Origin: a virus
Taxonomy: Duplodnaviria > Heunggongvirae > Uroviricota > Caudoviricetes
DNA length: 21,453 nt
Direction: 5' to 3' (one strand)
Virus record (IMG/VR): IMGVR_UViG_648276652_000012
In this document: piece by piece, positions 5,247 to 21,453 of the stretch
How the letters are laid out: each line of letters starts with the position of its first letter
How positions within the stretch are numbered: position 1 is the stretch's first letter
Position numbers and translations under genes: made by a program
Notes under the pieces: model-generated
What the model saw: the letters and a program-made list of their open reading frames with translations, nothing else
Databases searched by the model: none
Told to the model about the DNA's origin: nothing

Positions 5247-5768
5247 TTAATCAACGATTGTGATACCGTCTTTCAATGCGTTTTGCTTACCTGCAACATC
5301 CAGTGCATCAAAAGCAGAGCGTTTCATCGTTTTCTGACCAATATCATGCTGTGTCGGACGGGAGCCGCCGCCATTGTTGCCACTGGCTTTCAGGATGTAG
5401 TCTTTCTGAGGGTAATTTTCGACAAGGAACTCCAGCGCCTCATCAAACTGCGCCAGTTCGCCAGGCTTCGCGCGGGAATAAATTTTGTTGCCGGAAGCGT
5501 CATAAGCAACGATCTTCCCTTCTTCCACTTTGAATGCCTGCCCGAAGCGGGCTTGTAATAAATCTGCCGGGATCGCAATTTTATCGGCAATATATTTTGA
5601 ACCCGCAAAACTACCGCCAATCATAGAATCGTAAAGCTGCGTCTCCAGCATCTGAGAGCGTTGCTTTTCTTCATCTAATTGCTGCTGAAAATTTTTCGTA
5701 ATTTCTGCCTTAACCTGGTCAACCTGTCCCGCATCGATCAGCTTTTTCTGGTCGATTTTTAACAGCAT
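5247..5768 (-). CDS. head scaffolding-like coiled-coil protein (possibly the 3' part of a frameshifted longer gene)
   Basis: 173-aa ORF rich in Lys/Glu/Gln/Ala, between the MuF-like and capsid genes. Its frame stays open about 50 codons upstream of the first ATG, back to a TAA at 5924-5922. Confidence 0.6.
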   Translation of the reverse strand: MLLKIDQKKLIDAGQVDQVKAEITKNFQQQLDEEKQRSQMLETQLYDSMIGGSFAGSKYIADKIAIPADLLQARFGQAFKVEEGKIVAYDASGNKIYSRAKPGELAQFDEALEFLVENYPQKDYILKASGNNGGGSRPTQHDIGQKTMKRSAFDALDVAGKQNALKDGITIVD

Positions 5769-6010
5769 TTCCAGTGCCTCGATCGCCTTCTTCGGGTCTT
5801 CGATAGCGGCAAACTTAGCCAGTTTTTCCTCTGCAGCTTCTTTAGCCAGGCGATGATTTTTTGCCTCGCCATTAAGCTCTGTAATTTTTTTATCGCCAGC
5901 GGTGCATCGAAGCCGATTTCTTTACCATCGTCGTGCACATAAACTGGCAGGCCAGCAGTATCAATTTCTGCGTATTGTTTTCCGTTAATCTCGACCGTTT
6001 TCAGTTTCAT
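5759..6010 (-). CDS. possible N-terminal segment of the scaffold gene, in a different frame
   Basis: ATG at 6010-6008 (MKLKTVEINGKQYAEIDTAGLPVYVHDDGKEIGFDAPLAIKK...). After an A7 run (plus-strand T-run 5885-5891) this frame gives an implausible tail (RRRRSRHWKCC), while the -1 frame continues into the 5247..5768 ORF. Confidence 0.35.
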   Translation of the reverse strand: MKLKTVEINGKQYAEIDTAGLPVYVHDDGKEIGFDAPLAIKKLQSLMARQKIIAWLKKLQRKNWLSLPLSKTRRRRSRHWKCC

Positions 6011-6070
6011 ATTAGTACCTGGTTTAAGTCTTCCGACAGTTACGCTGCTCACCATCCGGATCGCAGCAAT

Positions 6071-6100
6071 AAAAAAGGCCACCCGAAGGTAGCCTGTTGT
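6071..6100 (-). terminator. rho-independent terminator between the MuF-like gene and the scaffold gene
   Basis: Minus strand reads ggctacc-ttcg-ggtggcc followed by ttttttattg: 7-bp stem with one G-U pair, TTCG loop and T-run; lies in the 6083-6114 intergenic gap. Confidence 0.55.
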
Positions 6101-10999: not shown

Positions 11000-11251
11000 T
11001 TAGTCCTGATTTTTATCCACCCTGAGTAGTTCGCGCAGAGCAAAGGCATCCCCTTTTCTGGCAAGCTTAAACAATGCCGCTCGTAACTCGGCTTCACCTT
11101 TCGCTCTGCCCTTACGGATGGCCGCATAAAAATCTGTCATTGCTTCCCGATTTTCTTTCAGTCGGTTCAGATCAACATCCAGAACGTCAGCGATTTGTTG
11201 TGCAGTCATCCGGCACGCTGCCAGAGACTCGACTTTCGAATACGGAATCAT
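11000..11251 (-). CDS. small hypothetical protein with a possible helix-turn-helix
   Basis: 83-aa ORF ending 3 nt before the small terminase start; ATG at 11251 has GGGGGTG upstream. Overlaps the 3' end of the upstream gene by 65 nt, so the start is uncertain. Confidence 0.4.
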   Translation of the reverse strand: MIPYSKVESLAACRMTAQQIADVLDVDLNRLKENREAMTDFYAAIRKGRAKGEAELRAALFKLARKGDAFALRELLRVDKNQD

Positions 11252-12119
11252 TTGTCACCCCCATTGATATGCAGGGTGTCTTCTTCCTGTATTTTTCGTG
11301 AAGGATTTTTACTGCAGCGTTGTTCCAGGTGACCTGATGGTGAATGCGTTTATGGCTGGCACCCATCAGTGAGATTTTTACGCACGACGGCGAATACATG
11401 ACGGAGTAAAAACTTTTAACGTAGGTTCCGGAATCCAGATACAGCTCGGTCATTCCGCCGCTGTTTTTCTGCGTCTGTTTCTGCCCTAACTGGACAGCAC
11501 CGATCGTCATAAACAATTCACCACAGCGACCGAGATTCGTGTACGTATTCACATCCTCGTTAATGCGCCCCATGAATGAGAACGGTCGATCAACCGAACA
11601 GATAAAGCTGTTCATTGCCTTGCGTTTCACCCACGAAGCATGGCCGCCATTGTCACCAAGAAAATCCCCGCCCTGCGACATAGCGATGGAAAGCGCGGGT
11701 ATTGATTCGTAATACGCCAGCATTTCAGAAAGGATCGCATCCAGTTTCCTTATCGGGAAATAGGCCTGGTCATAGTTGCGATCCACCCGAAACTGGAACT
11801 CGTGATAATCATCATCGAGCTGAATGAAGTATTTACACCCGACCAGTTTTGCCAGGTCGAAACAGGCATTACGGGCGTAAAAAATTGAGCGGCGATCACC
11901 AAAATTATCGGCTTCGTCAAAACGACTGGCAATATCGGCTTTGGAAAATACCAGCACCTGTTCACCAAATTCAGCCATGTACTGATGCCGTGTCTTATCT
12001 TCATCATCAACAACGATAAAAATTTTCCCGGTATAGCCAGCACGACGCAACGTCCGGTAAGTCAGAACTTTGTCCGGTCGCCCGTGAGTCAGAATAAAGG
12101 CGCAAAAATCATCACGCAT
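11187..12119 (-). CDS. GT-A-like putative nucleotide-sugar transferase (glycosyltransferase motifs)
   Basis: N-terminal FILTHGRPDKV...KIFIVVDDED resembles the GT2-type sugar-nucleotide binding signature; a downstream QLDDDYHEF resembles a DXD motif. No predicted transmembrane stretch. Start set at the ATG at 12119, preceded by GGAGGAGGAGGAGG. Motif-based call, not verified. Confidence 0.5.
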   Translation of the reverse strand: MRDDFCAFILTHGRPDKVLTYRTLRRAGYTGKIFIVVDDEDKTRHQYMAEFGEQVLVFSKADIASRFDEADNFGDRRSIFYARNACFDLAKLVGCKYFIQLDDDYHEFQFRVDRNYDQAYFPIRKLDAILSEMLAYYESIPALSIAMSQGGDFLGDNGGHASWVKRKAMNSFICSVDRPFSFMGRINEDVNTYTNLGRCGELFMTIGAVQLGQKQTQKNSGGMTELYLDSGTYVKSFYSVMYSPSCVKISLMGASHKRIHHQVTWNNAAVKILHEKYRKKTPCISMGVTNDSVFESRVSGSVPDDCTTNR

Positions 12120-12906
12120 ATTCCTCCTCCTCCTCCCCGCCATGCATGATCTCCACCATGCGCTGCGTCATTCGGACAAATCCATTTTCAATAGCCTGCT
12201 GATAATCAATGATCACCAGCGCCGACTCCTCGAAAAGGCACTGAATTTCAGCGGGGGCATGAGCGTAATAGTCCGCAATTCTGCTGAAATTAAACACTGT
12301 GTGACGTTCTGCCGCACACAGGAGGAATTTCTCAATATCAGGATCAAGGGACGCCGAACGTATCCGGCTGATCAGCTCCTGAGTTTTCGTATCGTCGTAC
12401 AGTTCACTGATATCCGGTTTACCGCCCGACGGCTCATAAACAGGCGTATCAATTTTCGTCGTATACGGCTCCTCCTCATTTCCTGTACCGGGCAAAACAT
12501 CCGTCAACAGTTCATCAATTTCTGTCGGGATGAAGCCTGTCAGGGAGACATCAAAATCAGCATTGATTAGGTCCGACAGCTCCATCCGCAACAGATCTTC
12601 ATCCCAGCCAGCATTCATCGGCAGGCGATTATCTGCCAGGCGGTACGCCTTTTTCTGCTCATCCGTCAGGCCAGACAGAACAATGACCGGAACAGAATCC
12701 ATTTTGAGCATTTCAGCCGCCATAACACGACCGTGACCCGCAATAATTTCGCCCTTTTCGTCAATCAGCACCGGATTAGTCCAGCCGAATTGCTTAATAC
12801 TTTCTACCAGTTGTGCCACCTGCTCAGGGCTGTGCGTCCTGGCGTTGTGCGCATACGGTGACAATTCTTGTAATGGGCGATAGACTATCTTTAATTTCTC
12901 GCTCAT
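12112..12906 (-). CDS. ParB-like nuclease domain (ParB/Srx N-terminal domain) protein
   Basis: N-terminal region PLQELSPYAHNARTHSPEQVAQLVESIKQFGWTNPVLIDEKGEIIAGHGRVMAA fits the ParB/sulfiredoxin-fold pattern; acidic C-terminus (GGEEEEEYA). Confidence 0.7.
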   Translation of the reverse strand: MSEKLKIVYRPLQELSPYAHNARTHSPEQVAQLVESIKQFGWTNPVLIDEKGEIIAGHGRVMAAEMLKMDSVPVIVLSGLTDEQKKAYRLADNRLPMNAGWDEDLLRMELSDLINADFDVSLTGFIPTEIDELLTDVLPGTGNEEEPYTTKIDTPVYEPSGGKPDISELYDDTKTQELISRIRSASLDPDIEKFLLCAAERHTVFNFSRIADYYAHAPAEIQCLFEESALVIIDYQQAIENGFVRMTQRMVEIMHGGEEEEEYA

Positions 12907-13043: not shown

Positions 13044-14501
13044 TTAGGAGCGCCAAAAAAAACCTGAAAACAATATAATAACAGGATAAATTTCAAGGCG
13101 ACCAAGAATCATAGCTATGCACATTAAACATTTTGCAATGTCATTAAGCACTCCGAATGACGATGCAGTAGCCCCAAAACCTAATCCCATATTATTAATA
13201 CATGCAGCCACTGTTGCAAATGATGTAAGAAAATCATATCCCATACCATTTAACACCAGTATAAAAAACACCGTGAAGAGAGTATAAAGAAAAAAGAAAC
13301 TCCATACAGACCTCATTACACGATCTGTAACTATCTTCCCTCCTACATTTACACTCAACAACGCTCTGGGATGAGAAAGCTGATTTATCTCGTGTTTGCT
13401 TTGTTTGAAAAGTATAAGAAATCGAAGTGACTTAATTCCACCACAAGTTGAACCTATACATCCCCCAAAGAAACTTGACAACAGCAAAAACACTATCGTG
13501 TGCGTGGGCCAACTTGCATAATCCTGCGTAGCTAAACCATTATCAGTGAGCATGGAGCTGGCAAGAAAAAACGAATGAATAAAACTTCCATGCAAGTCAT
13601 ACATACCTATATGCCAGACCTGGAAAGAGGTAACAATGATCACCCCTAAGGCTATTAACAGAAAGAAACGAAGTTCAATATCTCTGATTAAAGGTTTTAT
13701 CGTTTTCCTGCTAATAACAATATACCAAAGAGTGAAGTTGAAAGCCGATAGCAGGGAAAAAGAACCAGCCACCAGCTCAACCAAATAGTTATTAAAATAT
13801 CCGATACTCTCGCTATGAGTTGAGAAACCACCAAGCGAAACTGTGGAAATCCCGTGACAAATAGCATCAAACAAAGGCATTCCTGCAAGTCTATAACAGA
13901 CAATACAAGCAATACCTAATAAAGAATAAGTTATCCACAGTGTCCGTGACGTATCGGCCAGGCGGGGAGTGAGTTTGTCATCCTTAAATGGCCCCGGCAT
14001 TTCTGACTGATAAAGCTTTGCACCACCAATACCCAATAATGGCAATACAGCAACCGCCAGAACAATAACTCCTAAACCACCTATAAAATTTAACTGTGAC
14101 CGATAGTACAAATATGCCCGAGGTAATGAACTAACATCATCAATTACAGTTGCTCCTGTTGTTGTTATTCCAGAAACCCCTTCAAACAGAGCATCAATGA
14201 ACGTTAAATTAAGTTCTGAGTCAATCCATAAAGGGAATGCACTAATAACAGAAAACAAAATCCAAAACATTACAATTATAATAAACCCATCACGGGTACG
14301 TAATTGAATGCCAGATTTCTTAGTTGTATACCACGCTCCGCCACCAATGCAAAAAAATATAACGAAAGTTATAAAGAAAACGAACAGGCTTTTTTCTTTA
14401 TAAAACAATGCTACAACCATTGGTGGCAACATTGAAAGACTATAGAGCCAAACCAGGAACCCACACATATGAGTAACAACTCTTACATGAGATGTATTCA
14501 T
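13044..14501 (-). CDS. trkG: Trk-system potassium uptake protein TrkG (TrkH/KtrB family)
   Basis: 485-aa polytopic membrane protein starting MNTSHVRVVTHMCGFLVWLYSL..., recognised from memory as E. coli TrkG. Markedly AT-rich compared with flanking phage genes. Start trimmed from the TTG at 14519 to the ATG at 14501. Confidence 0.9.
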   Translation of the reverse strand: MNTSHVRVVTHMCGFLVWLYSLSMLPPMVVALFYKEKSLFVFFITFVIFFCIGGGAWYTTKKSGIQLRTRDGFIIIVMFWILFSVISAFPLWIDSELNLTFIDALFEGVSGITTTGATVIDDVSSLPRAYLYYRSQLNFIGGLGVIVLAVAVLPLLGIGGAKLYQSEMPGPFKDDKLTPRLADTSRTLWITYSLLGIACIVCYRLAGMPLFDAICHGISTVSLGGFSTHSESIGYFNNYLVELVAGSFSLLSAFNFTLWYIVISRKTIKPLIRDIELRFFLLIALGVIIVTSFQVWHIGMYDLHGSFIHSFFLASSMLTDNGLATQDYASWPTHTIVFLLLSSFFGGCIGSTCGGIKSLRFLILFKQSKHEINQLSHPRALLSVNVGGKIVTDRVMRSVWSFFFLYTLFTVFFILVLNGMGYDFLTSFATVAACINNMGLGFGATASSFGVLNDIAKCLMCIAMILGRLEIYPVIILFSGFFWRS

Positions 14502-14638
14502 ATCTAAATATTCTTTCAATTATAACCACCTTGCTGCAATATTATGATTATACTGTATAAAATTTAACTCCTCTTAGATCTTACTTCACTGTTCCTTATG
14601 AAACAATCATCAAAATGAATCATATTGTAGTTAAGATT

Positions 14639-20315: not shown

Positions 20316-21211
20316 AGATCCACCCCGTAAATCCAGTCTGTGTTTGTCAGGTCGAGTTTTGGTTTGCTGGCTGTCACGACTGCCTGTTGCTTGTTACGGT
20401 TGATTTCGAGCTGGGTCCACTTGTCGCGGAGTTTGGCCGGACTCAGCACGTTACCGGACCAGAAGTTGTCCTGGCAGGCCCAGCGGAACAGCACGCACAT
20501 GTCGCGGTGGTTACGTCCGTCACGTTCACGCATCAGGCGGATATCGTTAGCCCACCCTGCAAAATTCGGTTTTCTGGCTGATGGCGCGATGGTCTTCACC
20601 ATGTCAAACATCCACTCTGCGGCGGTCAGGTCTTCTGCTGTCCCCCACTTGCTGCCGCTCTGAATTGCAGCATCCGGTTTAACCACAGAAAGATCGTTTT
20701 CTGGCTGGTCAGAGGATTCGCCAGAATTCTCGGACGAATAATCTTTTCTTTTTTCTTTTGTAATAGTGTCTTTTGTGTCCCCCTGTTTTGAGGGATAGTA
20801 ATCCCCCAATTTGAGGGATGTTTTATCCCTCGTTTTAGGGGATTTTCCCTCGTTTTGAGGGATACACCATTCTGAGATGTTTTTATTTGGTCCAAACATG
20901 CCGCCTTGCTGCTTGATAATATTCATTCTGACGAGTTCTAACTTGGCTTCATTGCACCGTTTGACAGGTAACTTTGTAATCTCGCTAAGTTGAGAATCGG
21001 TGATTCTGTCCATTGGTTTATTCCACCCATAGGTTTTACGCAGAATGGCAAGCAGCACTTTAAACTGTCGCTTGGTCAGATCTGCGCCCGAATAAGCCTC
21101 AAGCAGCATATTTGATAGTCTGGCGTAACCATCATCGAGATCTGCCACATTACGCTCCTGTCCGGCAAAGTTACCTCTGCCGAAGTTGAGTATTTTTGCT
21201 GTATTTGTCAT
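20312..21211 (-). CDS. O: replication initiator protein O
   Basis: 299 aa, MTNTAKILNFGRGNFAGQERNVADLDDGYARLSNMLLEAYSGADLTKRQFKVLLAILRKTYGWNKP...; recognised from memory as lambda O; iteron repeats lie inside the coding sequence. Confidence 0.95.
   Translation of the reverse strand: MTNTAKILNFGRGNFAGQERNVADLDDGYARLSNMLLEAYSGADLTKRQFKVLLAILRKTYGWNKPMDRITDSQLSEITKLPVKRCNEAKLELVRMNIIKQQGGMFGPNKNISEWCIPQNEGKSPKTRDKTSLKLGDYYPSKQGDTKDTITKEKRKDYSSENSGESSDQPENDLSVVKPDAAIQSGSKWGTAEDLTAAEWMFDMVKTIAPSARKPNFAGWANDIRLMRERDGRNHRDMCVLFRWACQDNFWSGNVLSPAKLRDKWTQLEINRNKQQAVVTASKPKLDLTNTDWIYGVDL
20735..20864. other. lambda-type replication origin: four iterons plus adjacent AT-rich region, inside the O gene
   Basis: Four 18-19 bp iterons, each itself an inverted repeat (atccctc...gagggat), at about 20778-20796, 20801-20819, 20825-20843 and 20847-20864; A/T-rich tract at 20735-20777. 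Confidence 0.85.
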
Positions 21212-21213
21212 AA

Positions 21214-21453
21214 TGAACCGCCCCGGGTTTCCTGGAGAGTGTTTTATCTGTGAACTCAGGCTGCCAGATCATCGTTTCCGATGGAAGCATAATAAGCTTT
21301 TTCTGCTTCTGCCGGTGGGATATGGCCCAGCCTTTCCAGCAATCGTCGATTGTTATACCAGTCCACCCACGTGAGTGTGGCCAGCTCCACTTCTGTCCGG
21401 TTTTTCCAGCTCTTACGGTGTATTACCTCCGCTTTGTAAAGGCCATTGATGCT
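21214..21453 (-). mobile_element. IS3-family insertion sequence, one end (element continues right of the window)
   Basis: Terminus begins TGAACCGCC... at 21214, 2 bp from the O start codon; contains the transposase 3' end. The exact boundary is inferred. Confidence 0.7.
21256..21453 (-). CDS. IS3-family transposase OrfB C-terminal fragment
   Basis: Minus-strand translation ...SINGLYKAEVIHRKSWKNRTEVELATLTWVDWYNNRRLLERLGHIPPAEAEKAYYASIGNDDLAA with stop at 21258-21256; typical DDE-transposase C-terminus of the IS3 family. Confidence 0.8.
   Translation of the reverse strand, partial: SINGLYKAEVIHRKSWKNRTEVELATLTWVDWYNNRRLLERLGHIPPAEAEKAYYASIGNDDLAA

Follow-up and report, generated by a model that had tools for sequence, protein, structure and literature searches.

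The window, by which we mean the whole stretch of DNA analyzed (21,453 nt), lies in a lambdoid prophage that adjoins trkG and carries a ParB-like gene and ydaY. The head genes are arranged in the order DUF4055 portal, Mu-F-like minor head protein, scaffold gene and P22-type coat protein, and the scaffold gene is split across two reading frames at a run of seven A residues. The features of this gene and its immediate upstream region are as follows:

5247..6010, minus strand: full extent of the frameshifted pseudogene for a putative head-scaffolding (DUF6651) protein, 764 nt, compared to 765 nt for the intact allele, which specifies 254 aa
5885..5891, minus strand: A7 homopolymer, from which one nucleotide has been deleted relative to the A8 of intact alleles (alignment with A8 copies and census)
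5759..6010, minus strand: N-terminal fragment ORF, 83 aa plus stop; residues 1-42 native, residues 43-83 out of frame
5247..5768, minus strand: C-terminal fragment ORF (173 codons and a stop), corresponding to residues 82-254 of the unsplit protein; EFK43550.1
5777..5780, minus strand: GAGG, resembling a Shine-Dalgarno sequence, 8 nt before the ATG at 5768
6076..6095, minus strand: terminator-like hairpin with a T-run, in the gap that separates the scaffold gene from the Mu-F-like minor head gene

In the minus-strand ORF that starts at the ATG at 6010, MKLKTVEINGKQYAEIDTAGLPVYVHDDGKEIGFDAPLAIKK precedes the A7 run (plus-strand T-run 5885-5891). The run opens at the third position of an ATA codon, GCG AT[A AAA AAA] TTA, so that the zero frame contains an in-phase A_AAA_AAA heptamer. 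Past the run, the zero frame continues as ...AIKK LQSLMARQK...RRRRSRHWKCC, an arginine- and cysteine-rich stretch of 41 codons that ends at the TAA at 5761-5759. From 5921 on, no stop codon interrupts the -1 frame, which reads ...KKITELNGEAKNHRLAKEAAEEKLAKFAAIEDPKKAIEALEMLLK..., also given as ...KKITELNGEAKNHRLAKEAAEEKL..., into the 173-aa ORF at 5247-5768. Translation with one A added at the run yields a single protein of 254 aa, with the junction peptide ...AIKKITELNGEAK. The original prediction had described a scaffold gene split at this homopolymer, with fusion by one extra A into a protein of about 255 aa; all its sequence facts (the ATG at 6010, the seven A residues, the in-phase heptamer) hold, and its length estimate was one residue too high.

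The ATG at 5768 overlaps the stop codon of the upstream frame (ATGCTGTTAA). The GAGG at 5780-5777, which had been noted as a potential ribosome-binding signal for the 173-aa ORF, is present at a spacing of 8 nt rather than 9, and is coding sequence in the intact gene (...IEALEM...). The 173-aa ORF contains the whole Pfam DUF6651 domain. By exact protein look-up, this ORF and a 107-aa ORF upstream are EFK43550.1 and EFK43551.1 of Escherichia coli MS 119-7, respectively. The 107-aa ORF starts at the GTG at 6082, within the terminator-like hairpin 6095-6076; in phage HK639, a terminator is annotated at the equivalent position, and the RefSeq start of the intact scaffold gene is the ATG equivalent to 6010. 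The 107-aa ORF from this GTG is spurious, and the real start of the scaffold gene is the ATG at 6010. The span originally proposed for the gene, 5247-6082, does hold an ORF, but its upper end is the GTG in the hairpin and not the annotated start.

Identity of the split gene

The repaired 254-aa protein is 100% identical to WP_000770036.1, annotated as “DUF6651 domain-containing protein”. Residues 116-226 match Pfam PF20356 with 206.2 bits (E=1.7e-61), against a gathering cut-off of 27 bits, and residues 1-253 align with positions 1-249 of the 250 positions of the PHROG 784 profile (E=2e-126), a full-length collinearity that is obtained with one A restored, the window sequence itself being split. 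A weaker match was found to phrog_206, “head scaffolding protein” (E=1.1e-22). The portal/Mu-F-like/scaffold/coat gene order of the window recurs in HK639, Klebsiella phage 5, Gungnir39 and SPF_0923. Thus, the Pfam score, the profile collinearity and the scaffold-type gene position all place the gene in the DUF6651/PHROG 784 family, and the scaffold-like identity that had been suggested from the sequence is borne out by the matches to PF20356, PHROG 784 and phrog_206 together with the gene position.

The position and the PHROG label suggest that the DUF6651 protein acts as a head scaffold. It resembles the PHROG 206/P22 gp8 scaffolds in the location of the gene between portal/Mu-F and coat, in its coiled-coil-rich sequence and in the profile match; P22 gp8 is taken here as the functional analogue. 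A search of the scaffold protein against solved structures gave no useful match (the best, with E=0.015, was to an unrelated ribosomal protein), and a literature search found no mention of DUF6651 in the searchable library. Folded alone, the 173-aa ORF produced a poor model (pLDDT 48.8).

A single polypeptide in divergent homologues

Homologues from Klebsiella phage 5 LV-2017 (80% identity), HK639 (gp05, 68%) and Erwinia phage Gungnir39 (54%) are single ORFs of 250-254 aa, and their alignment is continuous across the junction. For two of these three distant homologues, the junction was read at the DNA level, as GGAAAAATC in the Klebsiella phage and ACCAAAATC in HK639, and both are without an A-run at this point. 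With the 173-aa ORF as query, a full HMMER scan retrieved 1238 relatives. Among the 150 best representatives of these, 118 are 234-292 aa long and all but one of the 118 (117) start with Met; in the best family representatives, the match to the 173-aa ORF begins after a median of 80 residues.

Residues flanking the junction on both sides are conserved among the 119 aligned sequences, namely, G29 (107), E31 (100), I43 (86), L46 (93), E49 (104) and R54 (107). The two lysines at positions 41-42, which are encoded by the A-run, are found in only four of the 119. Because the homologues are single-frame, the junction flanks are conserved and the lysine pair is rare, the family is, as judged from the alignments, one polypeptide; the A8 tract is a chance outcome of codon usage in one lineage, and A7 is a deletion of one base within it.

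We also considered Met82, the first residue of the 173-aa ORF, as a conserved internal start that would give rise to a natural short isoform. This candidate was rejected on an alignment of the 118 full-length representatives: the corresponding column contains Thr in 56, Lys in 23 and Met in 9 of the 119 aligned sequences, and the next column is mostly Val. Several divergent representatives of ~170-187 aa begin with Met just before the IDxKKLIDAG motif, and a more plausible origin of these short proteins lies in truncated, frameshifted or GTG-start gene calls. The original prediction had named two outcomes that would speak for separate genes, an independent start of the 173-aa protein and homologues with two conserved genes in the same overlap. 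As to the first, Met82 is rare in the family and does not mark a conserved start; the second was not found in the homologues, which consist of one fused gene.

Ancestral state of the A-run

We performed exact-match censuses with short queries across ~700 (678-701) complete E. coli genomes that have the site. The GAT-A7 sequence was matched exactly in four complete genomes and GAC-A7 in four, that is, A7 is present in 8 of ~700. By comparison, GAT-A8 was matched exactly in 215 complete genomes, and GAC-A8 was the other large haplotype seen; no A9 allele was detected on either the GAT or the GAC haplotype in this census. Overall, ~99% of these genomes have A8 and one reading frame, and A7 accounts for ~1% in total. 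In an even sample from 756 complete E. coli genomes, 36 of the 39 full-length matches span 932 nt, compared to 931 nt for the query, and the alignment identifies the additional base as the eighth A. All ten closely related phage records likewise match over 932 nt, which fits A8, as checked directly in SPF_0923. RefSeq labels all four inspected A7 copies, including the identical copy in NZ_CP104117.1, as “frameshifted”. From these comparisons, the split is derived, not ancestral. Of the three explanations that had been left open in the original prediction, a pseudogene, a sequencing slip and recoding, the A8 state of ~99% of the copies favors the first; the second is made unlikely by the sharing of the allele among strains, and the third is not supported, the homologues being a single fused gene. 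The alignment against intact homologues that had been proposed as a check gives the expected answer for a pseudogene, with A8 or a single frame in the intact copies.

The two “hypothetical proteins” EFK43551.1 (107 aa) and EFK43550.1 (173 aa) therefore derive from the same scaffold gene, and one joint annotation as a frameshifted pseudogene would be appropriate. RefSeq already gives such an annotation to identical copies.

A circulating allele

The window is a complete draft contig of E. coli MS 119-7, an assembly that we take to be a Human Microbiome Project era draft, and the sequencing platforms of that era under-call homopolymers. At least one homopolymer call in the contig is private, T8 at 1299-1306, where the near-identical contigs L014, L015 and L017 have T9. 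The strain could, accordingly, truly carry A8 at the scaffold gene, with the draft contig having lost one A to under-calling. The distribution of the allele makes such an error very improbable. The scaffold A7 is common to L014, L015 and L017, which come from other strains and differ in the positions of their IS elements, and it is also present in the eight complete genomes. At least 11 other NCBI contigs encode precisely the 83-aa fragment, and 47 encode precisely the 173-aa fragment.

The individual copies are informative. L015 (GCA_025527595.1), which has A7, matches the window without a single mismatch across 15,211 nt. It must come from a different strain, because the tape-measure gene of L015 is uninterrupted and an IS is found, instead, in the lysozyme gene, at the position equivalent to window 15462. 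L017, also with A7, differs from the window at two positions, and in this contig an IS interrupts the Mu-F-like minor head gene (window 6887). The complete genome NZ_CP104117.1 (L001) matches the window exactly across 3.8 kb, and here an IS3 interrupts the 131-aa head-tail gene, at a point just downstream of window 3790. A7 is found as well in the apparently intact prophage of L014 (GCA_025671665.1), so that the allele is not limited to plainly dead copies. When the whole window was compared to complete E. coli genomes, there was no full-length match, and the best coverage was 88%.

The frameshift occurs on several protein haplotypes, AIKKLQS, ATKKLQN and ATKKLQS, and has therefore arisen more than once. 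Because near-identical contigs, eight complete genomes and other contigs carry the allele or its products, A7 is a real circulating allele and is unlikely to be a private slip of the window contig. The most economical reading of the sequence data is that MS 119-7 inherited this circulating A7.

Comparison with programmed frameshifting and slippage

Programmed recoding would join the two frames by a -1 shift at A_AAA_AAA, or by transcriptional slippage, and would thereby fix the proportions of short and long scaffold products. Several features of the locus are compatible with such a site: the heptamer at 5891-5885 is correctly phased, the -1 frame has no stop in the region of A7, some IS elements use A_AAA_AAA (PMC4066793), and the prophage has an A_AAA_AAG tail-chaperone site at 752-746. 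However, of the properties expected of a programmed -1 site, only the in-phase slippery heptamer was found, and neither a conserved two-ORF organisation nor a stimulatory element was. A single frame is present in ~99% of the copies and in every divergent homologue, and the A-run itself is not conserved, as reflected in the rarity of the lysine pair. The 85 nt downstream of A7 fold with -23.1 kcal/mol, compared to a shuffle mean of -19.5 (z = -1.16), and 29 of 200 shuffles fold as well; no Shine-Dalgarno-like stimulator was seen by eye in the 20 nt upstream of the run. Given that the homologues are one fused gene and that the A-run is lineage-specific, programmed recoding is not supported, and we consider it extremely improbable.

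Published measurements for heptamers of this type span a broad range. In E. coli, unstimulated A_AAA_AAA is listed among the motifs with >0.10% frameshifting, and no unstimulated motif in E. coli reporters exceeded 10x the 0.055% background (PMC4066793), whereas C_AAA_AAA under T7 overexpression gave 25-60% frameshifting (PMC1851650). The A_AAA_AAA and A_AAA_AAG sites of the IS1 and IS3 families share with the scaffold gene the heptamer class, the phase and the two overlapping ORFs (PMC4066793), but the IS sites are conserved together with the overlap and often have a downstream structure, whereas the scaffold site has neither conservation nor significant structure.

The scaffold gene also falls outside the transcriptional-slippage class exemplified by T. 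thermophilus dnaX, Shigella mxiE and IS elements. Genes of this class typically have, where their ORFs overlap in a conserved manner, a conserved run of at least nine A or T residues, and selection against slippage is evident mainly at nine (PMC1088944); the scaffold run has seven residues here and eight in intact copies, and its conservation does not extend beyond the E. coli clade. Nor does the locus behave as a phase-variable contingency locus: among ~700 complete genomes, there are 8 A7 and 0 A9 alleles, with the OFF state at ~1%.

A useful comparison is available 5 kb away in the same element. The ydaY gene (~1096/1030 to 738, minus strand) contains A_AAA_AAG at 752-746, three codons before its stop (...QDTIKKP*), and the -1 frame is open (...DKKAIAAQRWLSEF...) through a downstream 66-aa ORF (~630-430), which is upstream of the tape-measure gene. 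By analogy, this site looks like a tail-chaperone frameshift of the lambda G/GT type; it is probably the “first” recoding site that the original prediction had in mind when it referred to a second one at the scaffold gene. The two sequences are closely similar, ACG ATA AAA AAG in ydaY and GCG ATA AAA AAA in the scaffold gene, and both -1 frames are open. The ydaY site, however, lies three codons before the upstream stop, as in lambda G/GT, whereas the scaffold split is absent from ~99% of the copies and from all divergent homologues. Thus, ydaY displays the organisation expected of a programmed site, and the scaffold A7 can serve as a negative control for recoding scans: considered alone, it mimics a programmed site, and its homologues reveal a recent deletion from A8.

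Proposed mechanism and possible leakiness of the A7 allele

Overall, we put the probability at roughly 85% that the locus is a homopolymer frameshift pseudogene of a head-scaffold gene, an ordinary and recurrent lesion in a decaying prophage. The deletion would have been generated by replication slippage that dropped one A from A8 (ATA AAA AAA ATT, encoding I-K-K-I) and would have been inherited since. Translation would then depart from the native frame past Lys42 and reach a stop after another 41 codons, and the main product is predicted to be the 83-aa fragment; re-initiation at the ATG at 5768 may yield the 173-aa C-terminal fragment. Full-length scaffold would be made only via unprogrammed slippage at A7, either a -1 ribosomal shift or an extra A in the transcript. 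Both events would recreate the exact wild-type sequence, probably at a low level.

Scaffold proteins are needed in large, stoichiometric amounts. Because the scaffold is required in bulk, the A7 haplotypes are rare and IS elements have inserted in the A7 lineage, the simplest reading is that the A7 allele is inactivating or strongly hypomorphic and belongs to a decaying prophage lineage.

Alternatively, the mutation could be leaky or partly compensated, with useful scaffold activity supplied by slippage at A7, by the 173-aa re-initiation product, or by both. The ingredients for such compensation can be recognized at the locus: a slip in either process would give exactly the wild-type protein, the GAGG is 8 nt before the ATG at 5768, which is overlapped by the upstream stop, and the 173-aa ORF includes the whole DUF6651 domain. 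In addition, A7 occurs in the intact-looking prophage of L014, and the AAA-AAA sites studied under overexpression shifted with the high efficiency cited above (PMC1851650). Set against these points, unstimulated heptamers reach at most 10x the 0.055% background (PMC4066793), which contrasts with the stoichiometric requirement for scaffold. Met82 is not conserved (M in 9/119, T in 56/119), and the N-terminal module, which the 173-aa product would not include, is conserved and present in 118 of the 150 representatives. Each A7 haplotype is rare, ~1% in total, and independent IS insertions are found in or next to the prophage in four copies of the A7 lineage (the window, L015, L017 and H1). We therefore regard a leaky or partly compensated allele as unlikely. 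Some leakiness is conceivable because A7 is itself slippery and the published AAA-AAA values range widely; that slippage and a 173-aa core scaffold together could sustain some capsid assembly, so that A7 would not be null and would represent a natural “compensated frameshift”, seems to us a rather more doubtful proposition.

Homopolymer pseudogenes with slippage rescue, namely, an E. coli orthologue pair (Baranov et al. 2005, PMC1088944 Fig. 5), human apoB A8 and endosymbiont poly(A) tracts, offer a parallel to the inactivating deletion favored here, in that a single-base indel in an A-run splits an ORF that is otherwise intact, and the native protein could be regained through ribosomal slippage or through an additional A in the mRNA. 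The cited bacterial rescue cases, however, involve runs of ~9 or more, whereas the scaffold run is only A7 and lies in a prophage with other lesions, and rescue here is putative.

Decay of the prophage and other lesions

The window is bounded by transposase sequences. Positions 1-252 and 21217-21453 are ends of multicopy IS3-family transposase genes, found at a median of three places per E. coli genome; by eye, these elements look like IS2 and IS629/IS1203. The left IS end cuts the tape-measure gene about four codons past its start near 264, and only a few bases separate the right IS end from the downstream replication gene, whose start is at 21211. No IS was found within the scaffold gene. 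The description of the element as IS-disrupted, which had been offered as a reason to expect decay, is thus accurate for the ends of the window and does not extend to the scaffold gene itself. The presence of different IS insertions in near-identical A7 copies (L015, L017 and NZ_CP104117.1) suggests relaxed selection on this prophage lineage.

The scaffold gene has more than one indel hotspot, as public variants are shifted also at a second A-run (A6, ~5857-5862, GGCAAAAAATC), which is located 24 nt downstream of A7. In one variant (P0007), the shift is at A6 and the first run is intact; two others (P0014 and P0016) are shifted at both runs. In another one (P0010), the protein retains 254 aa, with the middle 60 residues out of frame and the frame then restored. 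Long A-runs in prophage structural genes are recurrent inactivation points. A different kind of lesion is represented by a 354-aa protein (P0051), in which scaffold residues 1-185 run straight into the C-terminal portion of the major capsid sequence (equivalent to window ~6010 to 4009); this is evidently a deletion joining the scaffold and capsid genes in one of the copies of this prophage, a further sign of decay in the family.

The tail-tube gene (2211 to 1282) also contains a homopolymer of variable length. In the window, the T8 at 1299-1306, a minus-strand A8 near the 3' end of the gene, results in a protein of 309 aa ending in ...TRKKIPRLP*. In L014, L015 and L017, the run is T9 and the protein is 320 aa long, ending in ...TRKKNSPAAVIAKASAEAIS*. 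The tail-tube run of ETEC H10407 is also eight residues long, and that gene is annotated as “frameshifted”. The T8 of the window may be a private mutation or a miscall.

Three cargo genes are present in the late region, at 11187-12906 and 13044-14519, between the lysis and terminase genes: one for a TET-associated glycosyltransferase (PF20691, E=6e-35), one whose product has a ParB N-terminal domain, and one for the potassium transporter TrkG. We take the trkG-ParB-like-ydaY neighbourhood to resemble the Rac remnant of K-12.
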